Shown: positions 31,948-45,956 of the stretch, piece after piece
Numbering within the stretch: position 1 is the stretch's first letter
How the letters are laid out: each line of letters opens with the position of its first letter
Notes under the pieces: model-generated
What the model was told of the DNA's origin: nothing
The model's input: the letters and a program-made list of their open reading frames with translations, nothing else
Database searches by the model: none
DNA from: Actinomycetes bacterium
GTDB taxonomy: Bacteria > Actinomycetota > Acidimicrobiia > Acidimicrobiales > RAAP-2
Length of the DNA: 64,000 nucleotides
Assembly (NCBI GenBank): GCA_021798955.1
Contig: JAJZBK010000002.1
Location: 15,650-79,649 of the forward strand
Direction of reading: 5' to 3'
Translations under genes and position numbers: made by a program

Positions 31948-32022
31948 GCCCTCGTAGCTCAGCGGATAGAGCATCGGCCTCCGGAGCCGTGTGCGCAGGT
32001 TCGAGTCCTGCCGAGGGCGCCA
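31948..32022 (+). tRNA. tRNA-Arg (anticodon CCG), CCA encoded
   Basis: Hand-folded cloverleaf. The acceptor stem is gccctcg/cgagggc, the D-arm gctc-agcggata-gagc, the anticodon loop cuCCGga and the T-arm gcagg-ttcgagt-cctgc. The discriminator is g, followed by cca. Confidence 0.9.
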
Positions 32023-32867: not shown

Positions 32868-35606
32868 CTACACCGACGCCTTACGGACGTCCACGCGGAT
32901 CATGCGGTCGAACTGCACGGGCTGCCACTGGTTCGGCGTGAAGCGCAGGTGGCCCCAGCCGTCGGCCAGGTGCAACCACTTGACCATGCCGGGCTCGATC
33001 ACCGTGCCGTCGTACCAGCCGGCGAACCCGTACGGCTCCCAGGCGGCGTACAGGACGACCTGGCCCGGGCGCGGTCCTGGCGCGACCCGCGCGTGCACGG
33101 TGAAGGAGCCGAGGTCGTTGCGGACCTCCACCTCGTCGTCGTCCGCGATGCCGAGCGCTGCAGCGTCGTTGAGGTTGATCACCAGTGTCGGGTGGCCCCG
33201 TGTCGTCTCGAGCATGAGGGGGTTGGTGGCGTTGCAGGCATGGATGGACCAGCGGGGGTGCCCGCCGGTGAGCACGAACGGGTGGTCGCCGCCGTGCGCA
33301 GGTGCGTCCTTGTGGACGGGCAGCTCCTCGCCAGCCTCGAGGAACCACGGGTGGTCGACGTAAAAGGTCGCCCGGCCCGTGGTGGTGGCGTACGGCACGC
33401 CGTCCTCCACGTGCCAGCGAAAGGCGCTGAAGGTCTCGTCTGCCCGCAGCTCGGACCCGATGAGCCGGCCCGCTGGGAACACGCCATTGCCCTGCGCCGG
33501 TGCGAAGCCCCGCTGGCGCAGGGTCGTGAGCGACAAGTCCTCGCTGAACACGCCGGACAGGGCGCTGTCGCGCACCAACACGTCGAGGAGCGCCTCGTCC
33601 GATCGCAGCCTGCCGTCACGGTGCATGACCTTCCCGACGTCGCCAAGCGGGTGGGGAGCAGCTCGGCCGACGACCCGGTCGGCCATGCCCCGGGCCCGGG
33701 CCCGGTCGGCCACGGCGTCGGCGATGTCGCAGAAGATCTGCCAGTCCGAGCGGGCCTCGCCTGCCGGCTCGTGCACCTTGTCCGAGAAGGCCAGGTCGAG
33801 CGAGTGGGCGATGGGGTACTGCAGGTTGACCCGCTCGGCGTCGTAGGCGGCCGGCAGCAGCAGGTCGGCGTGCAGGCCCGCGCCGTTCATGCGCTGGTCG
33901 ACCGACACCACGAGCTTGAGCTCGGGCCACAGGTGCCGCAGCAGCATCCGCCGGCCGCCGCGGGTGCGGCGCAGTGTGCTCGTGCCCGGTTGGAACAGCA
34001 CTCGCGGGGTGCAATCCGGCGCGGGACGCAGGTATGGCGCCCACGACCGGCGGGCCTCGGCGATGTACTCCGCCATGGGCCGGGGGGAGCCGCCCCACGC
34101 CGGGTTGCTCCAGATGTCGCCGTAGCCGCAGTGGTCCAGCCAGTAGAAGAATGGCGGCGTGGTCGTGCTCGTGGCCGCCGCCGTCGACATGAGATCCCAG
34201 AAGGCCGGCCGGGGTAGCGGCGGCGGCACCCCCGTACCCGGATCGGGCTCGCCGAAGAGCATCCTCGCCATCGAGAACACCGCCTCGGCACCCTCGATCC
34301 CGCCAGTGCTCATCTGCTGTACGAGCGAGCCGTCGAAGGGCATCACCGCGTACGTGTCGTGTCCCCGGCCCTGACCGCCCCAGTTGCCGGTCAGGGCGAG
34401 CAGCAGGTCCATCGACCGTTCCATCAGGTCGCCGTGGTAGTGCTTGGGGGTGTCGAAGCCCTCCACGATCTTGGTGCGCTTGGCCGCCACCTTGCGTGCG
34501 AGCATGCGGATCGTGTCGGGGTGCACCCCGCAGATCGCCGAGGCCGCCTCCGGCCCGTACGCCTGCAGGCGCTCGACCAGCAGCTCGAACGCCGGCGTGA
34601 CCTCGACGGCTGTCCCGTCCTCCAGCCTGACGGTGAACCGGCCCCAGAGCGCTGGCGCGAATGACAGCCGCAGCGTGTCGTCGCGAGCCTCGACGGCACC
34701 AGACGCCGGGTCCCAGTGGAAGAACCCGAGCTCGCTGCCTCCCTCGGCCAGGTCGGCCTGGCGGAGCAGTCGGCGCGTGTCGGTGCGCACCAGCAGGGAC
34801 AGGTCCGTCTGAGACGAGACGAACGCCTCGTCCATCAGCCCCTCGTCGACGACCACCCTGCACATGCCGAGCGCCAGCGCGGCGTCCGCGCCCGGGGCGA
34901 CCGGTACGAAGTAGTCGCAGTGCGGCGCCGAGGGGCTGTAGTCGGGGGCAATGAGGGCCACCTCGGCCCCGTGGTACCGCGCCTCGGTTAGGTAGTGGAA
35001 GTAGGGGATGCGGGTGTACGCCGGGTTGCAGTGCCACACGAGCACCAGCTCAGCGTGGAAGGTGTCGTCGGAGGCCGAGCCTCCGGCGATGTGGCCGTAC
35101 GTGACGTAGTGGCCCAACAGGACGTCGTTGACGGTGGAGATGCTGTCGAGCGACACGGCACCCAGGGCGGCCGCCAGCCCCATGTGGCCGGCGATCGACA
35201 GCATGCCGCCCTCGGCGCTCTCGTCGACCACCACCGCATCGGGCCCGGACTCCTCGATGGCGTCGAGCACGGCGTCGGCGACCTGGGCGAGCGCCTCATC
35301 CCACGAGATCTGCTCCCACCGTCCCGAGCCGCGCTCCCCCACCCGACGCATGGGGTGCAGTAGGCGGTCCTCACCGGTGAGCTGGCGGCTCCAGGCGGTG
35401 CCCTTCTGGCACCCCATGGGGTTCCGGTCGGGCACGCCGGGCTGCGTCGGAGGGTAGACGCCGGCCTGCTCCTCCCACAGCACCGCGCTGTCCGCCGCGA
35501 ACACTCGGTAGGTGCAGCTCGACAGGCAGTTGGTGCAGTGCGTGCCCCAGGCGACGCGTTCCCACGAGAAGCGCTGGCGGTAGCGTTGCTCGCTCGACGA
35601 GATCAT
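32868..35606 (-). CDS. Type-II DMSO-reductase-family molybdopterin oxidoreductase, orphan alpha paralogue 3
   Basis: The ATG at 35606 has AAGGAG 6 nt upstream, giving 912 aa. FS0 motif WGTHCTNCLSSCTYRV (H-x3-C-x3-C), then NPMGCQKG, and the NarG-D222-equivalent context TVNDVLLGH. There is no twin-arginine signal. Confidence 0.85.
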   Translation of the reverse strand: MISSSEQRYRQRFSWERVAWGTHCTNCLSSCTYRVFAADSAVLWEEQAGVYPPTQPGVPDRNPMGCQKGTAWSRQLTGEDRLLHPMRRVGERGSGRWEQISWDEALAQVADAVLDAIEESGPDAVVVDESAEGGMLSIAGHMGLAAALGAVSLDSISTVNDVLLGHYVTYGHIAGGSASDDTFHAELVLVWHCNPAYTRIPYFHYLTEARYHGAEVALIAPDYSPSAPHCDYFVPVAPGADAALALGMCRVVVDEGLMDEAFVSSQTDLSLLVRTDTRRLLRQADLAEGGSELGFFHWDPASGAVEARDDTLRLSFAPALWGRFTVRLEDGTAVEVTPAFELLVERLQAYGPEAASAICGVHPDTIRMLARKVAAKRTKIVEGFDTPKHYHGDLMERSMDLLLALTGNWGGQGRGHDTYAVMPFDGSLVQQMSTGGIEGAEAVFSMARMLFGEPDPGTGVPPPLPRPAFWDLMSTAAATSTTTPPFFYWLDHCGYGDIWSNPAWGGSPRPMAEYIAEARRSWAPYLRPAPDCTPRVLFQPGTSTLRRTRGGRRMLLRHLWPELKLVVSVDQRMNGAGLHADLLLPAAYDAERVNLQYPIAHSLDLAFSDKVHEPAGEARSDWQIFCDIADAVADRARARGMADRVVGRAAPHPLGDVGKVMHRDGRLRSDEALLDVLVRDSALSGVFSEDLSLTTLRQRGFAPAQGNGVFPAGRLIGSELRADETFSAFRWHVEDGVPYATTTGRATFYVDHPWFLEAGEELPVHKDAPAHGGDHPFVLTGGHPRWSIHACNATNPLMLETTRGHPTLVINLNDAAALGIADDDEVEVRNDLGSFTVHARVAPGPRPGQVVLYAAWEPYGFAGWYDGTVIEPGMVKWLHLADGWGHLRFTPNQWQPVQFDRMIRVDVRKASV

Positions 35607-36017
35607 GCGGGCTCCTTGGCCGGGTCCCCCGATGCTCTCACGGGAGCTCGGCCGGCATCGACAACAACTGGAGAACGCCTCGATCCGCGCTCGAGCCCGG
35701 CCCTGGCCGTGCCGGCGTGCTGGTCGTGGCGGACACGCGGGCACACGAGAGGCGGGGTTGGACACCGTCGGTGATCGCCAGCGGTGAGGCATCGGCCGGT
35801 GCTGCGGACAGCCGTGGCGGCCTTCTCGCCTGCAGGTGGAGCGGCACTTGCTCGGCCCGGTGGTTCCGACCCGGCGGCACGTGGGCCTGCACCCGTCCGG
35901 TCAGCCACGTCAGGGAGTGCGGCTGCGTCGGAGGGTGGCCTGGCCCTGCCGGCACAGAGGCCCAGCGGAGCGGCCGCCGTGACCGATGGGGTGAGGCCCA
36001 CGTGCCGGACCTGCACC

Positions 36018-36191
36018 GTCCCGCCGAGGGGGGCACTCGCCGACGACTGACGCACATGGGTCGACGGCTGGAACGAGAACCCCACGCCCTTCGTGTGGCA
36101 CAAGACCGCAGACCAGATGCTCGAGCGCCTTGCCGGCTCTGGCGGCGCCACCAACCAAGGGGGGTGGACATGCCGGTGCCAGCCGCCGTGA
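36018..36191 (+). pseudogene. IS630-family transposase C-terminal remnant
   Basis: Reads ...RGALADD*RTWVDGWNENPTPFVWHKTADQMLERL, the conserved IS630 C-terminal block xWNExxxPFxWTKTADeIL, with an in-frame TGA and no upstream DDE region. Confidence 0.6.
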
Positions 36192-36355
36192 CCCGTGCCG
36201 TCACCGGGTGGCAGCCGTCCAGCCCGACCCTGGTCGAGGACCTCGACGCCGGCCGGCTTGCAGGGTCGACCGCCTGACCGGCCGAACCTGGCGGCCACCT
36301 GGCCACGCGGCCGCTTCCCGCGGGTCGGACCACCCGCCCTCCTACGGCCGGGGCG

Positions 36356-36958
36356 TCATCGGGTGCCCGGCACCGGCCGCCGGTGGTAGAGGACCCCCTC
36401 CAGTGCGGCCAGCGACCCGGGCGGCGCCGGGTACGCCATCGGGTAGGACGACCGTGCCTGGCCCCCCAGGCCGTGGTCGTCGGTGGCCGAGCACCGTGCG
36501 GTGGCCCGTTCCAGGACGTCGAGGACGATGGCGATGAAGGCCACCTCGTCGGCCGGTTCGGCGTCGAGAAGGGAACGGGCCGCCGACGTCGCCGCCGCCA
36601 TCGAGGCCTGGTGGGCCTGCCACAGCGCCGCCTGGTCGTCACCGACAGCCGCTCCGACGTACGACGCCCACGCCCGGGCCGCGCCGGTGAGCTCGGCGTC
36701 CGCGCCGACCGTCACGTCGACCACGTCCAGCACCATGAGCCCGTTCACCGCCTTCCACCAGCGTGAGCCCGACGGCCCGTCCGCTACCCGGCCGCTCGTC
36801 ACCTCCCACTCGAGGAAGTCGGACAGTGCGGTGCCGAGCCCCAGGCCGGTGCGCCCGGGCCCCGGGTGGGCCGTGAAGAACGCGGCGAAAGCCTGGCGGC
36901 GGTCGTCCACCGCCAGCCCGATGGCCGCCTCCAACCGGTCTGCTTCGTTCCTCACCAT
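36356..36958 (-). CDS. Hypothetical 200-aa protein (last gene of the Mo-enzyme operon)
   Basis: The in-frame ATG at 36958 has GGGGAG upstream, 65 nt after the preceding gene. No motif was recognised. Confidence 0.5.
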   Translation of the reverse strand: MVRNEADRLEAAIGLAVDDRRQAFAAFFTAHPGPGRTGLGLGTALSDFLEWEVTSGRVADGPSGSRWWKAVNGLMVLDVVDVTVGADAELTGAARAWASYVGAAVGDDQAALWQAHQASMAAATSAARSLLDAEPADEVAFIAIVLDVLERATARCSATDDHGLGGQARSSYPMAYPAPPGSLAALEGVLYHRRPVPGTR

Positions 36959-37023
36959 CACCGTCTCCCCGGCGACGTCACCGCCGGCTCCGGGTGCGGC
37001 GCCAGCAGGACTGCTCCCCGGGC

Positions 37024-38238
37024 TCACGGATCGACCAGGTAGAGCATGCCGTTGGGGTCGGAGGCGGCCAGCACGCCGGTGGCGAACCGCCGGCCCGCCG
37101 GCGCCCCCGGCCCCGGCGGGAACCCAGATAGGGCCAGTGCAGGCGACCATGCCGACACCATGGCGTGGTCGAGGAGCTCCCACATGACGTCGATGGGCTC
37201 GCCGGTGTCGGGGTCGGCCGGCAGCACGTGCATGTTGGGGACCGGGATGCCCGCCGGCTCGTCCAGGAACCAGCTCGGGTGGGCGGCGATGACGGGGCCG
37301 ATCTCCCCCATGCCGAAGAGCGTCAGCGCCCCACCCCCGGCGGCGGCGCCCACGCTGCGCCGCTCGTCCGGGTCGAACGGGCCGTCCACCGTGGCCACCA
37401 GCCACCGCCCCGGCACACCCTGGCTGCGGCGGCGACGCCCGCCACCGCCCGACCACGTTCGCCCGGCGTCCTCCAACGAGGCGGTGATCCACCCGGGCTG
37501 GTAGCGCTCGGTGGCCTCCACCGCACCGTCCCCAGCGACCGCCGCCACCACCGGGCACCCCGCCGCCAACGCACCCACGACCACGGCCAGGCCGTCCCAC
37601 GAGCACGGCGACTGCAGGACCAGCCACGCCGAACCCGGCTCCGGCTCGAAGAACGACGGGACGACCAGCGCGCCGGCCAGCAGCGACCGCTGCGAGTGCC
37701 ACACCGGCCCGGACGACCCGGACAGGCACACGCGCTCGTCTCTCAGGGAACCGGCCCCCGCTGCCGGCGTCTCATCCAGAGCCGTCGGCGGCTCGTCACC
37801 CACCTCGAGCACGGCCACGCCCGCGGCGGAAAGCAGGTCGGCACCCTCGGCGTCGCACAACCCGAAATCGGGCCGGGCTGCCTCAAGCACGGCCCGGGCG
37901 CGGTCGTCGTCGGCTGCGGCCAGGGCGACCCGTCGACCCGACGCCAGGGCACCGAGCACGGCCACGACCCCGGCAGCCCCGGGCCCGGCCGCCACCGCCA
38001 CCGCACCCTCGGGGCTCACCACGTCACGCACGGCCGACGCGGTGGCCGCCACCCGAGCGGCCAGCTCGGAGGCGGTCAGGTCGGCACCGTCGTCACCCGA
38101 CAGAGCGGCGTCCTGCGGACGTCGACGGGCCGGCCCGTCCACGGCCAGCGCGGCGACCGGCACGGGGGGCACCCCGAACACGCGGGGCACGGTGTCTGGC
38201 CAGTACCACGACGGTGTGGTGGCGATGGTCTTCGGCAT
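37024..38238 (-). CDS. Degenerate adenylate-forming (ANL/acyl-CoA-synthetase-like) N-domain protein
   Basis: 404 aa from the ATG at 38238 (TGATG overlap with the upstream stop). LSGSSGPVWHSQRSLL resembles the (T/S)SG(T/S)TGxPKG P-loop but lacks the Lys. No C-terminal ANL subdomain is present. Confidence 0.5.
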   Translation of the reverse strand: MPKTIATTPSWYWPDTVPRVFGVPPVPVAALAVDGPARRRPQDAALSGDDGADLTASELAARVAATASAVRDVVSPEGAVAVAAGPGAAGVVAVLGALASGRRVALAAADDDRARAVLEAARPDFGLCDAEGADLLSAAGVAVLEVGDEPPTALDETPAAGAGSLRDERVCLSGSSGPVWHSQRSLLAGALVVPSFFEPEPGSAWLVLQSPCSWDGLAVVVGALAAGCPVVAAVAGDGAVEATERYQPGWITASLEDAGRTWSGGGGRRRRSQGVPGRWLVATVDGPFDPDERRSVGAAAGGGALTLFGMGEIGPVIAAHPSWFLDEPAGIPVPNMHVLPADPDTGEPIDVMWELLDHAMVSAWSPALALSGFPPGPGAPAGRRFATGVLAASDPNGMLYLVDP

Positions 38239-38723
38239 CAGAGCGAGGCTCCCGGGCCGGATCCGTGCGGCCACGCGGCCACCAGCGCCCCCACCAGCGC
38301 CACACCCAGCTCGATCCGCAGGAGCACGTCCATCACCCGGATCGACCGCATCCGGCGTCGCTTCAGCTCGGCCCGGTCCTCACCGGGTTCGATGCGGGCG
38401 TGCGACCGGGGATGGACGAGGAGGCCCATGACCGTCACCAACGACGCCAGCACCACCCAGGCGGCCCCGAGGGCGAGCCACCGGGCCACGGACAACCGAC
38501 CGGGACCGCCGGTGGCCTGCCACGCCACGCATGTGGCGGCGATGGCGACCAGCGAGGCGATGGCCAGCCACCGGTAGCGGCGCCCCATGACGTTGCACAG
38601 GACGCCCGTCTGGCCGGGGGGGACGTAACGTTGCAGCGGGCGCCAGACCAGCTCCATGAACAGGGCACCGCCCACGTACACGGCCCACTCGATGGTGAAC
38701 ACGTAGCCGAGCGCGGTGTGCAT
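38238..38723 (-). CDS. 4-TM membrane protein, paralogue B
   Basis: 161 aa. It shares the AVYVGG..(F/A)ME(L/F)V...Q R(Y/F)VPP.Q..VL block with the upstream paralogue. It has 1-nt overlaps (TGATG) at both ends. Confidence 0.6.
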   Translation of the reverse strand: MHTALGYVFTIEWAVYVGGALFMELVWRPLQRYVPPGQTGVLCNVMGRRYRWLAIASLVAIAATCVAWQATGGPGRLSVARWLALGAAWVVLASLVTVMGLLVHPRSHARIEPGEDRAELKRRRMRSIRVMDVLLRIELGVALVGALVAAWPHGSGPGASL

Positions 38724-39256
38724 CAGAGGATCCCGTTCCCGTAGGCGAGGGAGGCGCCCAGCAGGACCACGACCAGGGCGATGACGAGGTCGGCCCGGGT
38801 CAGCCAGGACACCCGGCGGGCAGCCACCTGCATGGCCTCGACCTGCTCGCCCACCCGAGCACCACCGCCTCGTCCACTGGCCTTGGCCGCCAGGCGGGGC
38901 CGGTACACGAAGGTGATGACCGAGCCGTTCACCACCAGCACGGCCCACAGGACCATCATGGCCAGCAGGGTGCGCCCCGAGCCGGTAGTGAAGATGTCGC
39001 CGCTCGACACCAGGTTCTGGTCCGACAGGGAGAAGAAGAGCAGCATGCCGCTGACGGGCAGCAGGGCGAGCGAGGACCACACCAGGACCAGGAACCGGTC
39101 GGCCGACTTCTGGGCCAGCACCTGGGCCTGGGCCGGGGGGACGAAGCGCTGTGCCGGACCGAGGACGAACTCCATGGCCACCGACCCGCCGACGTAGACG
39201 GCCACCGCAAGGAGGTGGAGGTAGGAGGCGAGAACCTGGACCCACGTGGCCGTCAT
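38723..39256 (-). CDS. 4-TM membrane protein, paralogue A
   Basis: 177 aa with four hydrophobic segments. It has an ATGA overlap with the upstream gene. Confidence 0.6.
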   Translation of the reverse strand: MTATWVQVLASYLHLLAVAVYVGGSVAMEFVLGPAQRFVPPAQAQVLAQKSADRFLVLVWSSLALLPVSGMLLFFSLSDQNLVSSGDIFTTGSGRTLLAMMVLWAVLVVNGSVITFVYRPRLAAKASGRGGGARVGEQVEAMQVAARRVSWLTRADLVIALVVVLLGASLAYGNGIL

Positions 39257-40728
39257 GCGTGCCTCTCCCCTCCGGTGGCGGCTCCGGGATCGGGCTGCCC
39301 CGCGTGCCAGGTGGCGAAGTGGTCCTCGATGGCGGGAGTGAGGCCGTCGGCACCGCCGTCGGGGATGAAGTACCGATGGTAGAAGCCGGTGTCGACGTGG
39401 TGGACCTGGACGGAGAGCTTGGCCCGCACCGGGTTGACGTACGCGGGGCAGCACCCGTGCTTGGCCACGATGTGCTCGACGGTGGCGATGGCCGCCTCCT
39501 CGGCCCAGTCAGAGAGGTGGGCACGGGGGTGGGCGCGCACCTCGTCTGCCACCTCCGGACGCCACGGGTCTGGGGCGCCGTCGAGGGCGCCGCCGGGTCC
39601 CTCACGCAGCGACCGGACGTAGCGCACGGCAGAAGCCGCGTCGGGGAAGCGGGGGGAGGGCACCATGACCGGCTCGAACACACCGGCCAGCCCCTGGCAC
39701 GTGGAGGTCTTCGCCGGGTTGGTGGCAGGGTCGCGCTCGAGGAACGAGAAGCCCAGCCCGGGCGAGATCTCCGGATAGGCACCGAGGAGGAAGTCGTCGG
39801 CGTACGACCCCGTGGCCCACGCCCCAAGCCCGAGCGCTTCGCACGCCAGGCGGATGTTCTGGACCATGCAGCCGACCTGGCCGGTGTGGAGGAGGAGGGC
39901 CAGCTCGTCGAAGGCGGGGATGGGGAAGCCCACCTCGAGGAAGCCGGGCCGGATCCACTCCTCGCACCCGGCGGGGTCGCCGGTGTCGGGGTCCTGGAGG
40001 TAGAAGCCGGACCACTCGTAGGAGACGAGGAGCTGGTTGAACCACTCGAGGCCCACGTCGCCCACGGGCACCAGCCACGTGCTCCCCGGCCGGTTCAGGT
40101 TGTACTGGCCCGCCCCCATCGGCCGGACGTTGTGGGTGGCCTCGGGGGCTCCCGGCCAGGCCACGTCGGGGCGGTGGTCGAGGACCTGGACCCGCCCGGC
40201 CCGGTACCACTCGAGGATCCTGCCGTAGTCCTCGGGGCCCCGGATCTCGACGGGTCGGGGCGGATCGGGCTCCGGCCGGTAGGCCCACACGCCGCTGTCG
40301 TCGATGACGAACAGGTCGACGCCGAGGTCACCGGAGGACGACGGGACCGTCCGCCCCCGGCGGTGGAGCATGCCGGCCAGGGCGCCCTGCACGGGGATGT
40401 CGGCCAGGGCCATGCCGTTGGGACCAGCGGCGACCCAGCACAGCAGGGCGGCCTCCGTCTCGGACAGCGGGACGGGCGATGCCGCGGACGCGTAGGCGAA
40501 GGGCCCCTCGGGCTGGGTGGCGGTGCGGTCTCCCGACCAGGAGAACGCCTCCTCCTCCCCCGTCTCCGCCCGGTAGCCGAGGCCCATGCGGCGGGTGCGG
40601 ACGGTGGCGAGCAGTTGGAACAGCGTTGGGGTCGAGGTGAAGGCGGCCGCCACCTCCGAGGGATCGCCCGCTCCGGTCGGTGCCGGCCCGCTGCCGGCGT
40701 CGTCGCCGGCCCGTCGCGAGAAGATCAT
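39253..40728 (-). CDS. Nitroreductase-superfamily (SagB/ThcOx-like) protein
   Basis: 491 aa. VRTRRMG resembles the RRSxR FMN motif, VPSSSGDLGVDLFVIDDSGVWAYRPE resembles SagB PSAGxxYPxExY, and VQNIRLACEALGLGAW is the nitroreductase QN..LAA.ALGLG motif. It has an ATGA overlap with the alpha-2 stop. Confidence 0.6.
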   Translation of the reverse strand: MIFSRRAGDDAGSGPAPTGAGDPSEVAAAFTSTPTLFQLLATVRTRRMGLGYRAETGEEEAFSWSGDRTATQPEGPFAYASAASPVPLSETEAALLCWVAAGPNGMALADIPVQGALAGMLHRRGRTVPSSSGDLGVDLFVIDDSGVWAYRPEPDPPRPVEIRGPEDYGRILEWYRAGRVQVLDHRPDVAWPGAPEATHNVRPMGAGQYNLNRPGSTWLVPVGDVGLEWFNQLLVSYEWSGFYLQDPDTGDPAGCEEWIRPGFLEVGFPIPAFDELALLLHTGQVGCMVQNIRLACEALGLGAWATGSYADDFLLGAYPEISPGLGFSFLERDPATNPAKTSTCQGLAGVFEPVMVPSPRFPDAASAVRYVRSLREGPGGALDGAPDPWRPEVADEVRAHPRAHLSDWAEEAAIATVEHIVAKHGCCPAYVNPVRAKLSVQVHHVDTGFYHRYFIPDGGADGLTPAIEDHFATWHAGQPDPGAATGGERHA

Positions 40729-43541
40729 CGGTCGACTCCTCCTCCCGCCGGGACTGCGGCGACCTCGACGAACACCGCCCGGTCGGCGGGGACCGGCTGC
40801 CACCCGAACGGTAGGTAGCGCAGGTGGCCGTACTTGCCCACCAGGTGCAGCCACTTGACCATGCCCGGCTCGACCTCGTTCGCGCCCTCCCACCGGCGGA
40901 ACATGTGCGGCTCGAAGCCGTTGTAGACGATGACCTGCCCGGGCCGCACCCGCCCGGTGACCCGCACCATGGCCTCGAAGGCGCCGTGGTCGTTGGACAC
41001 CCGCACCTTCTCGCCCTCTGCCACGCCGCGGGCGGCGGCGTCCTCCTCGCTCATCACCACCAGAGGGCGTCCCCGGTGGGTGCCGAGCAGGTGGCGGTTG
41101 CCCATCCCGATCGAGTGGACCGTCCAGCGCGAGTGGCCGCTGGTGAGGACGAGGGGGTACTCGCCCCCCATGCGGGGCGGCTCCTTGTGGGTGGGGAGCT
41201 GCTCCCCCGCCTCGAGGAACCACGGGTGGTCGATGTAGAACTGGGCCCGCCGGGTCAGCGTCGGGTAGGGCAGGTGCTGTTCGACGTGCCAGCGGAACGC
41301 CGTCATCACCTCGTCGTCACGCACGTCGGCCGCCACCGACAGACCCGGCGCGAAGGTGCCGAGCCCGGTGAAGCGGATGCTCCCGTCGCGGCGCAGGCGC
41401 TCGACCGAGCTACCCGGCGGCAAGGTGCCGGCGTCGGCCGAGTCGCGCACCCACTCGTCGAGGACCATCTCCTCACCCGACAGCTGGCCCCCGAGGTCGA
41501 AGTCCTCCCCCAGCCGGGCGGCGTGGCGGGTCTGGCGGCGGGCGTCGTCGTACTCGTCGAGCCCGACAGCGACGGCCCGCTCGGCGATGGTCCGGGCGAG
41601 CGCGGAGAAGATCTCCCACTCGGTGCGGGCCTCGCCCCGCGGTGGGGTGGCCGCGTCGGAGAAGGCCAGCCGCAGCATGTGGGTGATGGGGTACTGGACG
41701 TTGACCCGCTCGTACTGCATGGCCGCCGGGAGCACCAGGTCGGCCTGGAGGGCGGTGGCCGACATGCGGAAGTCGACCACCACCACCTTGTCGAGCTTCG
41801 GCCACAGGGTGTCGACCAGTTTCGCCCGCCCGCCCCGGGCACGGCGCATGGGGTTCGTCCCCACGGTGAAGAGCACCCGCGGGGGGGTCGACGCCCCCGG
41901 CCGAGCCACCCCGCCCCACCAGCCACGACGGAGGGCGTCCCGCAGGTAGTCGCCGAACGGCTTGGTCATGGTCGGATCCGACCACTCCGGCCGGTTCCAC
42001 GTCTCGTCGTAGCCGGCATGGTGGTAGTTGAAGAACACGGGCGGCGCCGCGGTCCCGGAGCTGGTGGCCAGGGCGAGCAGCTGGTTCCCGAGCATTTCGT
42101 CGGTGGCGTCGGGATCGCGCTTGCGCATCTGGGCCATGGCCTGGTCGATGCCGTCGAGCACCCGGGCCGTCTCCTCCACGCCCGGGCGCGTCTTCATCGA
42201 GAACAGCAGGTAGCCGTCCAACCCGGCCAGGGCCAGGCCCTGGATCCCGGTGCCGGGTCGGCCCCAGTTGCCGGTGAGGGCCAGCACCAGGCACATGGAG
42301 CGCTCCATCAAATCGCCGTGAAAGTACTTCGGCCCGTTGAAGCCCTCGAGGATCTTGACCCGCCGCCCGGCGACCAGGTGGGCCAGCCGGCGGATCGTGG
42401 ATGCGGGCACGCCGCAGATGGCGGCGGCGTCCTCCGGCGCGTAGACGCCCAGGTGGCGGCGGAGCAGGTCGAGGACGGTGACCACCTCCACCTCGGTGCC
42501 GTCGGCCAGCGTGACGGTGAAGGGGCCCTCGAGCACCGGGTCGAGCGTGCCCAAGTCGAGCGTGCCCCTGGGGGCGGCGGTCAGGCCGCCGGCCCGGTCC
42601 CACAGGTGGAAGGTCTCCTCGTCGCCGCCCGCCCGGAGGTCTCGCTGGCGCAGGTAGCGGCCGGTGTCGCTCCGCACCAGCAGCGGCAGGTCGGTCTGGG
42701 TGAGGACGAACTGGCGGTCCCACAAGTCCTCGTCGAGCACCACCCGGCACATGGCGAGGGCGAGGGCGGCGTCGGTGCCGGGCCGGACGGGGACGTAGAG
42801 GTCGGAGCCGACGGCCGATGCGTTGTAGTCGGGGGCGATGGCCACCACCTGGGCGCCCCGGTAGCGGGCCTCGGAGATGAAGTGGTGGTACGGGATCGAC
42901 GTGTAGGCCGGGTTCGAGTGCCACAGCAGGAGCACGTCGGCGAGGAAGGTGTCGTCCACCGTGCTGGCACAGGAGAACTTGCCGAAGGTCAGGTGCTGGC
43001 CGGTGGGGAGGTCGTTGACCAGCCCGTTGGCGTCGAGGGTGACGGCGCCGAGGAGGGCGGCCAGGCGGAGGAACGGCGCCTGGGCCAGCAGGCCGCCCTC
43101 CACGCTCTCCTCGAACACCACCGCTTCTGGGCCGTCCTCGTCGAGGACGGCAACGACCGCCTCGGCCACCTCGGCCAGCGCCTCCTCCCAGGTGATCTGC
43201 TCCCACTTCCCGCTACCCCGCTCCCCCACCCGGCGCAGTGGGTGGAGGACGCGGTCCTCGCTCGACAGCTGGGCGCTCCACGCCCCGCCTTTCTGGCAGC
43301 CGAGCGGGTTCATGTCGGGCACGCCGGACGCCACCGGGTCGATGGTGCCGGCCTGTTCCTCGAACGCCACCTCGCCGTCCCGGCTGAACACCCGGTACGG
43401 GCAGCCAGCCAGGCAGTTCAGGCAGTGGGTGCCCCAGGTGACGCGCTCCCACGTCCACCGGGACCGGTAGTCGTCCGCGGTGGCTCCCGTTCCCGGCCGG
43501 TCGCCCGCGCTCGCCGGGGGTGCGGCGTCGCCCTCACCCAC
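40725..43541 (-). CDS. Type-II DMSO-reductase-family molybdopterin oxidoreductase, orphan alpha paralogue 2
   Basis: The in-frame GTG at 43541 overlaps the chaperone gene by 8 nt, giving 938 aa. Motifs are WGTHCLNCLAGCPYRV, NPLGCQKG and LVNDLPTGQH. There is no Tat signal. The 1437-aa ORF in the track is a read-through artefact. Confidence 0.85.
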   Translation of the reverse strand: MGEGDAAPPASAGDRPGTGATADDYRSRWTWERVTWGTHCLNCLAGCPYRVFSRDGEVAFEEQAGTIDPVASGVPDMNPLGCQKGGAWSAQLSSEDRVLHPLRRVGERGSGKWEQITWEEALAEVAEAVVAVLDEDGPEAVVFEESVEGGLLAQAPFLRLAALLGAVTLDANGLVNDLPTGQHLTFGKFSCASTVDDTFLADVLLLWHSNPAYTSIPYHHFISEARYRGAQVVAIAPDYNASAVGSDLYVPVRPGTDAALALAMCRVVLDEDLWDRQFVLTQTDLPLLVRSDTGRYLRQRDLRAGGDEETFHLWDRAGGLTAAPRGTLDLGTLDPVLEGPFTVTLADGTEVEVVTVLDLLRRHLGVYAPEDAAAICGVPASTIRRLAHLVAGRRVKILEGFNGPKYFHGDLMERSMCLVLALTGNWGRPGTGIQGLALAGLDGYLLFSMKTRPGVEETARVLDGIDQAMAQMRKRDPDATDEMLGNQLLALATSSGTAAPPVFFNYHHAGYDETWNRPEWSDPTMTKPFGDYLRDALRRGWWGGVARPGASTPPRVLFTVGTNPMRRARGGRAKLVDTLWPKLDKVVVVDFRMSATALQADLVLPAAMQYERVNVQYPITHMLRLAFSDAATPPRGEARTEWEIFSALARTIAERAVAVGLDEYDDARRQTRHAARLGEDFDLGGQLSGEEMVLDEWVRDSADAGTLPPGSSVERLRRDGSIRFTGLGTFAPGLSVAADVRDDEVMTAFRWHVEQHLPYPTLTRRAQFYIDHPWFLEAGEQLPTHKEPPRMGGEYPLVLTSGHSRWTVHSIGMGNRHLLGTHRGRPLVVMSEEDAAARGVAEGEKVRVSNDHGAFEAMVRVTGRVRPGQVIVYNGFEPHMFRRWEGANEVEPGMVKWLHLVGKYGHLRYLPFGWQPVPADRAVFVEVAAVPAGGGVDR

Positions 43542-44193
43542 CGAGCCGCTCGGCCACGTAGGCGCGGTCGGCCGACACGAACGCGGCCAGCTGGTCCAGC
43601 GTCCACCCCACCAGCGGCCCGGCACCGCGTCCGGCCGACGCCACCAGGCCAGGGACCCAGTCGAGCACGTGGGCGTCGAGGAAGTCCCGCTGGGCCCGGC
43701 GGAACGAGGTGGCCAGGCGGGGCGACGGCGTGGCCGCCTCGCGGAAGCACAGGTACTGGAGGAAGTCGAGCTCGGTGGCCAGGTGGTCGGCCGGGCGGGG
43801 TGCGGCGTCCGATGCAGCCAAGCCGAAGTACTCGTACTCCCGCCGCACGGCGGCGATCTCCGCCTCCCGGTCGGCCCGGCCGCCCCCGCCCAGGAGGGCG
43901 CCGCCGCCGAGGACCCGCTCGTGGTCAGCGGCGAACGATGCCGCGTCGGCGCCGGCGGGGACCTCCACCGGCCCGATGGCGAAGCCGAACGGCAGCAGCG
44001 ACGCCGCTTCGGTGAGGCCCGCCACCCACTTGCCCTCGGCCGCCTGGTCGAAGAGATCTGCCGGTGCGGTGGCGAACCAGCCGCCGAAGAACTGGTACAC
44101 GGCGCTGCGGGCCGTGGTCTCGTTCTCCTCCACCTCGATGGGGCCGGCCTCGGCCGCGCTGAGCTCGAGCCCCTGGAGCGAGTAGGTGAACAT
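43534..44193 (-). CDS. TorD/NarJ/EbdD-like redox-enzyme maturation chaperone (delta)
   Basis: 219 aa. The EYEYFG...DHLATELDFLQYL block is typical of TorD-family chaperones. Confidence 0.8.
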   Translation of the reverse strand: MFTYSLQGLELSAAEAGPIEVEENETTARSAVYQFFGGWFATAPADLFDQAAEGKWVAGLTEAASLLPFGFAIGPVEVPAGADAASFAADHERVLGGGALLGGGGRADREAEIAAVRREYEYFGLAASDAAPRPADHLATELDFLQYLCFREAATPSPRLATSFRRAQRDFLDAHVLDWVPGLVASAGRGAGPLVGWTLDQLAAFVSADRAYVAERLGG

Positions 44194-44197
44194 GGCG

Positions 44198-45301
44198 TCA
44201 CTCCCCTTCCGTCGCTCCGGCCCTGGTCCGACCCAGCTGCACGGCCACCCGTTCCGGTGACCGATCGAGGCCGGCCGGATCGACCGTGTACGGGCCGAAC
44301 AGGTCGTGCCACCGGTAGACGATCAGCGTGTCGAGCAGTTCCGAGGTGCCGCCCGACCGTACCGTCGCCATCTCGTCCCGAAGGGTGTCGAGCGCAGCGT
44401 GGACGCGGGGTCCGAACAGCGACTCGAGGTACTCGGGCGGGATCCGCGGCGTCTCCTCGTCGACGGAGAAGTCGTCGTGCAGTCGGTAGGGCGAGAGGGG
44501 CGGCACATAGAAGATGTTCGGGCCCGTCCCGTACTCCTCGTGGAGAGGCAGCGCCACCTTCCACTCGTGCACCAGCCGGTGGATGGGGCCAGCCGGATCG
44601 GCGGCGTCGCCCACGAACACCAGACGCCCCGGGCACTGGCGGGCACAGGCGGGGGCCACTCCCTCCTCCAGCCGGGGGAAGCAGGCGATGCAGTGCTGGC
44701 TGACGCCCCGGACGTAGTTGAAGGAGATCTTCTTGTAGGGACAGGCCTCCATGCAGAAGCGTGCGCCCTGGCAGACGCTCTCGTCCCGGAGCACGATCCC
44801 GTCCTCGTGGCGCTTGTACATGGCGCCCGACGGGCAGGCCGACACGCACACCGGACGAGTGCAGTGGTTGCACAGCCGGGGCAGGTAGAAGTAGTAGGAG
44901 TTCGGGTAGGTCCCGCCCCCCTGGTCCTCGTCCCAGTTCATCCCCCACCGGGTGGTGCCGTCCCCCCGGTCGACGGGCTGGAGGTGGGCGTCGCGGCCCC
45001 GGCCGCCGAAGAGCACCTCCTGGTAGTTGAAGTCCCACCCGCCGCCGAACTCGGCACGGGTCGGCTGGTGGCCGGGCACGGGGGTGTCGTCACGCCACCC
45101 ACCCCCCATGTCCTCCCACGCCTTCGGGGTGCCGAGGCCGGGCTGGGTGTTCACGCTCATCCACCACTGGTGCTCCTCCCCCTCCTCGCGGGTCCACAGC
45201 ACCTTGCAGGCCACCGAGCACGTCTGGCAGCCCATGCACTTGTTGAGGTCGAAGACCATGGCCAGCTGGCCGGCCGCCCCCTGCTGCGTCATCGTCTGCA
45301 C
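44198..45301 (-). CDS. Type-II DMSO-reductase-family Fe-S beta subunit (EbdB/NarH-like)
   Basis: 367 aa with four cluster motifs: CMGCQTCSVAC, CNHCTRPVCVSACP, CQGARFCMEACPYKK (3Fe-4S type) and CIACFPRLEEG...CARQCPGR. Confidence 0.9.
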   Translation of the reverse strand: MQTMTQQGAAGQLAMVFDLNKCMGCQTCSVACKVLWTREEGEEHQWWMSVNTQPGLGTPKAWEDMGGGWRDDTPVPGHQPTRAEFGGGWDFNYQEVLFGGRGRDAHLQPVDRGDGTTRWGMNWDEDQGGGTYPNSYYFYLPRLCNHCTRPVCVSACPSGAMYKRHEDGIVLRDESVCQGARFCMEACPYKKISFNYVRGVSQHCIACFPRLEEGVAPACARQCPGRLVFVGDAADPAGPIHRLVHEWKVALPLHEEYGTGPNIFYVPPLSPYRLHDDFSVDEETPRIPPEYLESLFGPRVHAALDTLRDEMATVRSGGTSELLDTLIVYRWHDLFGPYTVDPAGLDRSPERVAVQLGRTRAGATEGE

Positions 45302-45335: not shown

Positions 45336-45956
45336 TCATGCCTGCACCGCCGACCACTCGCTGCTCACCGCTCCGATGCCCGCCCGCTCCTCGTTGGCAC
45401 CGTTCCACACGGCCACCGCCACCCGGCCGCGGTCGCCCAACGCCGAGCGGGGCCCGGTCAGCACCACCGACCATCGGATGCCGTCCACCGACGACGCCGC
45501 GTCGAGGCTGGCGCCGTCGGGAGCGGGGCGGAACATGCCCGGGCCGGTGGAGACCAGGTGGCGGACGGCGGGCATGCCCTTCTGGATGGGGAGCCGGTCA
45601 CGCCACTGCCACACCAGGACGGGCGACGTGTGGTCGCCCATGGTCACCGGATCGGCCGGCCCATCCCCCTGAGGGAAGAGGACGGCACAGGCGTCGGGGA
45701 ACTCCCCCGCGATGGGCCCCGAACCGTCCCACTCCAGACGCATCAGCAGGCGGTCGCCGTGAGTGGCCACCGAGACGGAGGCCGACGGCGTGGCGCCGTA
45801 GGGGCGGTCGCGCCAGGCCGCCCGGACGTAGGCGTTCCGCTGGGCGTCGACGGGCACCGGGACGAGAGGCACCGTCACCGGTGGGGCCGCGGCCCACGCC
45901 GGGTCGTCCGGTGCCAGTGCCTCGGCGCCCAGCTCCAGCGCGGTCAGGTCGGTCAC
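45336..45956 (-). CDS. EB_dh-like gamma subunit (putative heme-b subunit), no signal peptide
   Basis: 206 aa. Size and blocks (LLMRLEWD, VAVAVWNGANEERAG..SSEW) resemble EbdC/SerC/DdhC. GTGA overlap with the alpha-1 stop. Confidence 0.7.
   Translation of the reverse strand: MTDLTALELGAEALAPDDPAWAAAPPVTVPLVPVPVDAQRNAYVRAAWRDRPYGATPSASVSVATHGDRLLMRLEWDGSGPIAGEFPDACAVLFPQGDGPADPVTMGDHTSPVLVWQWRDRLPIQKGMPAVRHLVSTGPGMFRPAPDGASLDAASSVDGIRWSVVLTGPRSALGDRGRVAVAVWNGANEERAGIGAVSSEWSAVQA

Follow-up and report, generated by a model that had tools for sequence, protein, structure and literature searches.

How does an ethylbenzene-dehydrogenase (EBDH)-type molybdenum enzyme pass on its electrons when it lies in the cytoplasm, and what ties one of its catalytic paralogues to four proteins that are not found in EBDH systems? 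Both questions are raised by an operon in a 64-kb stretch of contig JAJZBK010000002.1 from an Actinomycetes bacterium (the window; G+C 71 %), in which the genes read, on the minus strand, in the order alpha-1 (a1), gamma, beta, delta, alpha-2 (a2), B, C, D, E and F. EBDH-type enzymes hydroxylate unactivated C–H bonds without oxygen, and their genes serve as markers for anaerobic hydrocarbon and steroid degradation. To our knowledge, all characterised members are periplasmic alpha–beta–gamma complexes that hand their electrons from a haem-b subunit to a cytochrome c. Downstream of a2, gene B (39253-40728) encodes a 491-aa protein with a divergent nitroreductase fold and a putative flavin mononucleotide (FMN) site, C (38723-39256) a 177-aa four-helix membrane protein with a CopD-family domain, D (38238-38723) a 161-aa paralogue of C with four transmembrane (TM) helices, and E (37024-38238) a 404-aa protein consisting of the N-terminal domain of ANL (AMP-binding) enzymes alone, which is probably a pseudo-enzyme. 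C and D are the only membrane proteins of the operon. The last gene, F (36356-36958), encodes a soluble protein of 200 aa. From B to F the G+C fraction at the third codon position (GC3) is 0.89–0.93 as against 0.46–0.60 at the second, which is the coding signature of a genome with 71 % G+C.

The five genes from a2 to E are joined end to end. The a2 and B reading frames share the ATGA at 40725-40728, B and C the ATGA at 39253-39256, C and D the TGATG at 38721-38725, and D and E the TGATG at 38236-38240. An earlier annotation made from the letters of the DNA alone (the original prediction) had described the five open reading frames (ORFs) B to F and these overlaps, and we recovered all of them exactly, together with the motifs it had quoted: PSSSG and QNIRLACEALGLGAW in the 491-aa protein, AVYVGG..ME in the two membrane proteins and LSGSSGPVWHS in the 404-aa protein. 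The coupling also reaches upstream, with a GTGA between a1 and gamma and a GTG start of a2 that overlaps the delta stop by 8 nt.

To what extent this arrangement is particular to one genome can be judged from loci that we gathered by three independent queries, namely B, homologues of C, and a profile of E. The B query, run on one genome per GTDB species, returned 28 loci, all of them in metagenome-assembled genomes (MAGs), from Acidimicrobiia, Microthrixaceae, Solirubrobacterales and one bin labelled 'Acidobacteria'; the order a2–B–C–(D)–E is found in every one of these with enough flanking sequence, and a1–gamma–beta–delta is present in most. The C query added a Kiritimatiellia contig with beta–a2–B–C–D–E alone, without gamma and without delta, a Thermoflexaceae genome with alpha–a1–gamma–beta–delta–a2–B–C–D–E, and two Chloroflexota/Dehalococcoidia islands (L038, L039) that are arranged alike and carry a second alpha–gamma–beta–delta set in divergent orientation. 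Searching metagenome contigs with the E profile gave 79 loci, 22 of which extend at least 6.5 kb upstream of E; alpha, B and C/D precede E on the same strand in 21 of these 22. The module thus spans at least four phyla and about 100 independent contigs, and the co-occurrence with Mo-enzyme genes that the original prediction had proposed as its own check holds in all 28 B-query genome loci, in the metagenome loci and across these phyla. The carriers found are MAGs throughout, from Actinomycetota, Chloroflexota, Kiritimatiellota and others, and come from soil, peat, permafrost, mine-waste, aquifer and marine sediment.

The junctions recur together with the order. Among the orthologous loci, the median gap is −4 between a2 and B (17 of 21 overlap), −4 between B and C (23 of 25), −1 between C and D (18 of 22) and 0 between D and E. 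One may ask whether unrelated genes have simply been packed side by side, as is usual in high-GC actinobacterial genomes, where four-base overlaps are frequent in operons; the window flanks, which consist of housekeeping genes with no common theme, would suit such an explanation. However, identical order and overlaps are found in four phyla with three queries, and all-against-all clustering of the locus ORFs revealed no further conserved neighbours, as it yielded only out-of-frame shadows of known genes and ligase and U32 genes specific to Solirubrobacterales. Because order and overlaps recur across phyla, the gene order is not chance adjacency; the synteny data refute that explanation, and we leave it practically no probability. 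Across phyla, the genes from alpha-2 to E are inherited together as a single unit that is coupled at translation. In the two Chloroflexota/Dehalococcoidia islands there are four EbdA-like alphas and two gamma–beta–delta sets, the second of which stands right after E and is followed by genes for an acyl-CoA dehydrogenase, a 262-aa nitroreductase and a thiolase.

The enzyme to which this unit belongs is of the EBDH type, and its subunits match EbdA, EbdB, EbdC and EbdD of Aromatoleum aromaticum (2IVF). Alpha-2 (40725-43541), an EbdA-like catalytic subunit of the molybdenum bis(pyranopterin guanine dinucleotide) (Mo-bisPGD) kind, scores 733 bits against EbdA (2ivf_A), compared with about 464 for perchlorate reductase and about 200 for NarG. 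Its 829 bits against TIGR03479 lie under the 985-bit subfamily cut-off, so that we regard it as a divergent member of the EBDH branch. Aligned to EbdA, it keeps the Mo-ligand Asp223 and Lys450, has Val in place of His192, and carries the FS0 motif H-x3-C-x3-C as HCLNCLAGC; the Asp ligand, Lys450 and FS0 are thus shared features of the two systems. The operon opens with alpha-1 (45953-48799), also EbdA-like. Beta (44198-45301) is a four-cluster Fe–S subunit with visible Cys motifs (TIGR03478, 447 bits; EbdB, 409 bits), delta (43534-44193) a NarJ/EbdD-like chaperone (Pfam Nitrate_red_del, 52 bits; TIGR03482, 74 bits), and gamma (45336-45956) has an EB_dh domain (Pfam EB_dh, 35.7 bits). Several alpha paralogues have been reported to share few beta/gamma sets among steroid C25 dehydrogenases, and the window, too, has several alphas for few such sets. 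Alpha-2 is 61–62 % identical to the alphas that precede B in Kiritimatiellia and Thermoflexaceae and 45–50 % identical to a1 and a3 of the window. Since this cross-phylum identity exceeds that to a1 and a3, the pre-B alphas form a separate orthologue group. Alpha-1 is itself 62 % identical to the a1-type alpha of Thermoflexaceae.

What sets this enzyme apart is its location and its gamma subunit. A twin-arginine (Tat) leader is absent from a1, a2 and a3 and from the a2 orthologues of Kiritimatiellia and Thermoflexaceae, the alpha matches setting in some 45 residues after the start of EbdA, and a signal peptide is likewise missing from gamma. As no subunit has a Tat or Sec (general secretion) signal, the Mo enzyme is, judged by its sequences, a cytoplasmic EBDH-type form, whereas a Tat leader and a periplasmic location are common to EBDH, Ser, Ddh, Clr and Pcr. 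We also compared the gammas of the window, of the B-query loci (L001–L028), of L031 and of L038 and L039, which represent Acidimicrobiia, Thermoflexaceae and other Chloroflexota including Dehalococcoidia. Aligned to 2ivf_C, the window gamma has Met at the position of the haem ligand Met108 and Gly at that of Lys201; across the a1-linked gammas of three phyla the former position is Met, Ile, Leu or Lys and the latter Gly or Ala, and one gamma in the second Chloroflexota operon retains both EbdC haem ligands. These substitutions suggest that gamma is without haem in the cytoplasmic enzyme, and the usual electron exit of an EBDH-type enzyme appears to be missing here. Compared with EBDH, the window enzyme therefore differs in its lack of export signals, in a gamma without the Met/Lys haem-ligand pair, in the order alpha–gamma–beta–delta, and in having one alpha paralogue locked to four extra proteins.

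Where, then, might the electrons go? Alpha–beta dimers of the type II dimethyl sulfoxide (DMSO)-reductase family need a third partner for their electrons; EBDH, Ser, Ddh and Clr have a haem-b gamma for this purpose, and NarGHI has NarI. Because the Kiritimatiellia operon has neither gamma nor delta, B to E are the sole co-encoded candidates for a third subunit there. Our favoured reading, to which we assign a probability of roughly 40 %, sees B, C, D and E as the four subunits of a membrane-bound unit of flavoprotein and anchor, dedicated to cytoplasmic alpha-2/beta, which it would hold at the membrane and whose electrons it would carry in place of the haem-b gamma or NarI. We favour it because the enzyme is predicted to be cytoplasmic, the gammas lack the haem ligands, the Kiritimatiellia operon does without gamma, and B to E are always made with alpha-2. 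The first, second and third of these also lend circumstantial support to the idea, put forward in the original prediction, that the 4-TM pair is a membrane anchor or quinone site in place of NarI. In the arrangement that we envision, a C/D heterodimer would anchor the complex at the cytoplasmic face of the membrane and could bind a redox cofactor or a quinone through C His14 and a cluster of D residues on the cytoplasmic side (Met23, Cys43, His104 and Met131). B with FMN would stand between the Fe–S chain of beta and C/D, relaying electrons, and might itself oxidise the hydroxylated product, while E would be a non-catalytic scaffold or a substrate holder. B to E would in this way do the job of the haem-b gamma plus periplasmic cytochrome c of ethylbenzene dehydrogenase, or that of NarI in nitrate reductase.

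The features of B are compatible with the place proposed for it. An identical sequence occurs in an Actinomycetota MAG, found on 18 contigs, and each of its more than 170 close homologues is annotated 'hypothetical'. The AlphaFold2 model (predicted local distance difference test (pLDDT) 80; predicted TM-score (pTM) 0.84) has a nitroreductase fold; its best Foldseek match is 3hoi (E 3e-5, probability 1.0, target-normalised TM-score 0.60), and the top set consists of the plain FMN nitroreductases 3hoi, 3hj9 and 8cqs (E 3e-5 to 3e-4, probability 1.0). The azoline oxidases score lower (probability 0.96–0.98 for ThcOx and BmdC, with McbC also matched), and in sequence B stays below the thresholds of both Pfam PF00881 (12.4 versus 23.5 bits) and TIGR03605 (19.4 versus 78.4 bits). 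The label 'SagB-like' given to it in the original prediction is hence too specific. B shares the fold and the central QN..LA.E.LGLG motif with the nitroreductase superfamily (SagB, ThcOx, BmdC, McbC), but it is 491 aa long, contains large insertions and is extended by about 130 aa at the C-terminus, and no YcaO, cyclodehydratase or precursor-peptide gene, as in SagB systems, lies near B in any locus. The invariant residues of the family are R44-T-R-R47, Q290-N-x-R-x-A-x-E-x2-G-x-G-x-W304 and R435-A-K437, motifs which we take to resemble the contacts of nitroreductases to the FMN phosphate and isoalloxazine, and which are consistent with the putative FMN site. A further invariant cluster, His443/His444/Asp446/His470/His475, lies in the C-terminal extension outside the nitroreductase core and may be a metal site.

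A profile of B, searched against 1.84 billion representative proteins, matched 62 clusters with E ≤ 1e-30 and 573 with E ≤ 1e-3; B belongs to a family of its own comprising about 60–240 clusters at 50 % identity. Its distant relatives stand alone, in contexts that differ: a cluster of ChsH2, thiolase-like (Ltp2-like), MaoC and CoA-transferase genes, a peptide ATP-binding cassette (ABC) transporter, and an SDR gene. In one further case, a protein of 863 aa (P0341; L037 2623-5214), a distant B-like domain follows an MpaB/Lcp (rubber-oxygenase-type) catalytic domain in a single chain.

C and D, which would provide the anchor, are paralogues (44 % identity over 52 residues, BLASTP E 1e-10), as had been predicted. 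C scores 37.2 bits against Pfam CopD (PF05425), above the 32.1-bit cut-off, and D 14.1 bits; the CopD match is found in all 38 members of the C/D family that were tested (E ≤ 10), and NCBI names the orthologues of C 'CopD family protein'. Four long helices are seen in the AlphaFold2 model of C (pLDDT 88). The positive-inside rule would place the termini of C and of D outside and loops 1 and 3, which are strongly basic in the two proteins, in the cytoplasm. Each of 27 orthologues of C retains Glu29 as well as His14, a residue of the outer half of TM1. In D, M23, R28, Q31, Q38, C43, G47, H104, P105, R110, M131 and L135 are invariant among 25 sequences from four phyla, and the same rule would put them on the cytoplasmic side. 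D of Chloroflexota, Kiritimatiellia and two actinobacterial loci keeps a TM1 His that D of the window has lost. Conserved His or Met residues, which the original prediction had proposed to look for as haem ligands, are therefore present (C His14; D Met23, His104 and Met131), whereas the paired His ligands of NarI- and FdnI-type anchors are not found, as C has one invariant TM His and D one or two His at the membrane edge. A link to HemJ, a 4-TM haem-b protein resembling CopD, was considered and dropped, with no Pfam UPF0093 match and no linking paper found.

The CopD match brings in a different account, in which C and D, as importers of the CopD type, would supply copper or another metal to the His/Asp site of B, or B to E would be assembly factors of alpha-2. 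It accommodates the above-threshold score and the database name of C, the invariant Met, Cys and His of D, which are typical soft-metal ligands, and the His/Asp cluster in the C-terminal extension of B. CopD proteins have been proposed to be copper importers, and CopC is their usual partner, encoded alongside or fused (PMC8689200). The loci examined contain neither CopC nor another copper gene. Canonical CopD, PcoD, YebZ and YcnJ proteins (PF05425) measure about 300 aa, so that C and D reach half of the canonical size, and they stand in a Mo-enzyme context, not in one of copper homeostasis. Canonical CopD has about eight TM helices as against four here. The original prediction had named assignment to CopD with its usual partners as an outcome that would speak against it: the CopD assignment stands, while the partner is missing and the size is halved. 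We know of no copper requirement among enzymes of the DMSO-reductase family. As to maturation, the Kiritimatiellia operon is without a NarJ-like chaperone, so alpha-2 there might need another factor; yet in the window a delta chaperone is encoded immediately before alpha-2, and it is rare for maturation factors to be kept in strict 1:1 translational coupling to as many as four partners. Taken together, metal delivery or maturation strikes us as improbable.

The role of E in an electron-transferring unit is hard to picture. It passes the Pfam AMP-binding cut-off (37.5 versus 29.9 bits, residues 37-349) and AMP-binding_C is absent, as the original prediction had stated; searched by sequence against the PDB, it matches nothing at E ≤ 0.01. 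Like acyl-CoA ligases, adenylation domains of nonribosomal peptide synthetases and PaaK, E aligns with ANL enzymes over 313 residues in the order A3–A7, but it lacks the C-terminal domain and the A10 Lys, and it ends in ...NGMLYLVDP / SDPNGMLYLVDP, right before the position of the ANL hinge. The P-loop region varies among the orthologues, GEL has become WEL, and TGD has become TGV or TWA, with loss of the Asp. Because the P-loop, the ribose-binding Asp and the entire C-terminal domain are missing, E would be unable to adenylate, and it is probably an ANL-derived pseudo-enzyme. It has a motif of its own, PSWYWP, within the N-terminal M-P-K-T-I-A-x-T-P-S-W-Y-W-P, which is invariant from Actinobacteria to Kiritimatiellia; M-x-K-x-I-A-x-x-P-S-W-Y-W-P is its looser form, likewise invariant across phyla. 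A lone E homologue with this N-terminus intact is found at L054 10001-11215, among unrelated genes that are transcription-regulator-like, methyltransferase-like and radical-SAM-like.

Two known systems come closest to the proposed unit. In NarGHJI, a type II enzyme that faces the cytoplasm, alpha–beta is tethered to the membrane subunit and exchanges electrons with it; the window enzyme would share the orientation and the tether, and NarG is a relative of alpha-2 at about 200 bits. However, NarI is one 5-TM protein, a dihaem cytochrome b in which four His are conserved, while C and D are two 4-TM proteins of the CopD fold with one or two conserved His each; the model of C has no detectable similarity to NarI, and NarGHI has neither a flavoprotein nor an ANL-like subunit. 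The second is phenylacetyl-CoA:acceptor oxidoreductase, PadBCD, of Thauera aromatica, the subject of a paper by Rhee and Fuchs (1999; listed among the references of PMC13416013). It is a membrane-bound Mo–Fe–S enzyme that oxidises a cytoplasmic CoA ester without O2. PadBCD is encoded near a PaaK-type ligase, belongs to another branch of the DMSO reductases and has a conventional membrane subunit. We know of no nitroreductase-fold, CopD-like or ANL-like partner of PadBCD. These two systems are the closest functional analogues of the unit that we propose. No published description of a B–C–D–E module was found in the literature, in line with the statement of the original prediction that no Mo-enzyme system with this accessory set had been described.

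The loci that depart from the common order raise another account, in which B to E would be no electron route but catabolic steps that follow the hydroxylation of a cytoplasmic, probably CoA-linked substrate. B would then be a flavin-dependent dehydrogenase or oxidase acting on the product, E would hold the acyl or CoA moiety as a ligase remnant or ligase partner, and C and D would import the substrate or hold a lipophilic one at the membrane. The Solirubrobacterales loci have no D; in its place, between C and E, they encode a PaaK-like CoA ligase of 647 aa (4r1l_A, E 1e-26) that has an intact P-loop and an extra N-terminal region of about 200 aa, and a gene of the Peptidase_U32 family, which we take to include O2-independent hydroxylases, follows E; an intact ligase at this very place is as the pathway account would have it. 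This variant is seen at L018 12017-13960 and L024 15052-16251, in L019–L021 and L027, and in about eight metagenome loci (L063, L070, L073, L077, L078, L115, L117 and L118). On the flanks of the Kiritimatiellia and Chloroflexota modules lie genes for acyl-CoA dehydrogenase, thiolase, CoA-transferase and ligase, and together with the PaaK-like ligase these neighbours suggest CoA-activated organic acids as the substrate class. Locus L087 (1-17470) contains B–C–D–E with no Mo-enzyme gene within 3.7 kb upstream or 10 kb downstream; small nitroreductase, enoyl-CoA hydratase and acyl-CoA dehydrogenase genes lie upstream and a gene for an FAD_binding_2 flavoprotein directly downstream. The acyl-CoA dehydrogenase and the hydratase here occupy the position of the Mo enzyme, and as a pair they amount to a net hydroxylation. 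The solitary distant relatives of B likewise occur in catabolic settings, such as the ChsH2/Ltp2-like/MaoC/CoA-transferase cluster, the SDR neighbourhood and the MpaB/Lcp fusion.

Against a catabolic role of B to E stand four considerations. E, being unable to adenylate, would be catalytically dead and left without a task; the 4-nt overlaps conserved from alpha-2 to E across phyla better match a stoichiometric complex; a cytoplasmic Mo enzyme with a gamma devoid of haem ligands would have no electron partner; and a dedicated pair of paralogous membrane proteins would be odd for a soluble catabolic step. We hold a catabolic module to be the main rival of the membrane-bound unit, possible though less likely. 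The two accounts are compatible, since B could act as the next enzyme and at the same time be the point of entry to a shared anchor.

The membrane-bound flavoprotein and anchor unit has to be weighed against a number of observations that speak against it. The cofactors of B, C and D are predicted ones, and the stand-alone relatives of B in metabolic clusters suggest an enzyme and not a pure electron carrier. For the CopD family, the sole role that has been proposed is copper import (PMC8689200). A search of the PDB with the model of C returned nothing significant (best E 1.7), and kinship of C/D with cytochrome b561 was tried and rejected, as Ni_hydr_CYTB appears weakly in 6 of 38 members and the member that was inspected scored 13.5 against 30.1 bits. 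The TM1 His is gone from the window's own D. The Solirubrobacterales loci, without D but with a PaaK-like ligase, fit the catabolic account at least equally well. It is not obvious what an ANL domain without catalytic use would do in a chain of electron transfer. Finally, by our own estimate from the ethylbenzene/1-phenylethanol couple, C–H hydroxylation would be a poor donor to menaquinone.

The absence of a Mo enzyme from L087 also fits a portable electron-handling unit. In its broader form, which we put forward tentatively and consider somewhat unlikely, B–C–D–E would be a new type of membrane redox module, made up of a CopD-fold heterodimer, a flavoprotein relay and a pseudo-ANL scaffold, that joins cytoplasmic dehydrogenases or hydroxylases to the respiratory chain. 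Its partners would be the EbdA-like Mo enzyme in the window and flavoenzymes of the acyl-CoA type in L087.

The locus represents a widespread cytoplasmic form of the EBDH-type enzyme in which one catalytic paralogue is tied to four uncharacterised proteins, and it points to an undescribed third EBDH-type architecture that would be cytoplasmic, tethered to the membrane and furnished with an accessory set of uncharacterised families. If the membrane-bound unit is as we propose, this would be a third architecture of the type II DMSO-reductase family beside the periplasmic alpha–beta–gamma enzymes and NarGHI, with a new type of membrane anchor and a redox role, possibly the first, for the poorly understood CopD fold. 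If B to E are an electron route, it would be wrong to take metagenomic 'EbdA-like' matches in these phyla for classical hydroxylases of ethylbenzene or alkanes; if B to E are catabolic instead, the loci would stand for an anaerobic route, so far undescribed, by which CoA-linked substrates are degraded.

The original prediction had counted the 200-aa protein F as a member of the module, and this has to be corrected. F is encoded near the module in 16 of the 28 genome loci, on either strand and at variable positions, in Acidimicrobiia-type loci only, and it is absent from the loci of Solirubrobacterales, Chloroflexota and Kiritimatiellia. It is a lineage-restricted add-on outside the conserved core. 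Its GC3 is 0.91, it has no Pfam match, and seven database relatives were found; an assignment as a hemophore (NCBIfam, 17 versus 32 bits) was treated as noise. The 65-nt spacing from E to F and a ribosome-binding site had been predicted correctly, with a Shine-Dalgarno-like GGGGAG 8 nt before the F ATG. An alternative GTG start at 37027, 23 codons earlier, makes a GTGA overlap with the E stop, and F would likewise be translationally coupled if it were used; the N-termini of the orthologues are too variable to choose between the two starts.

The remainder of the window has little to say about the substrate. Its flanks hold housekeeping genes (for arginyl-tRNA synthetase, LysA-like, homoserine dehydrogenase, ThrC-like, Rho, release factor 1 and Leu-pathway proteins) and signalling genes, and no substrate hints were found among these flanking genes. 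A third EbdA-like paralogue, alpha-3 (a3; 32868-35606, minus strand), lies 749 nt downstream of F. The intervening stretch (35607-36355) contains no convincing ORF, and nothing relevant was found there by the Rfam search of the whole window or by promoter and terminator scans. One candidate, ORF 'G' (35603-36298, 231 aa), was rejected, since it has no family match and looks like a non-coding, Arg/Pro-rich translation. A tRNA gene (31948-32019, plus strand; Rfam, 65 bits) is located between the arginyl-tRNA synthetase gene and alpha-3. Alpha-3 is not syntenic in the closest relatives: as synteny with loci L001 and L002 ends just past F, alpha-3 is a lineage-specific addition.

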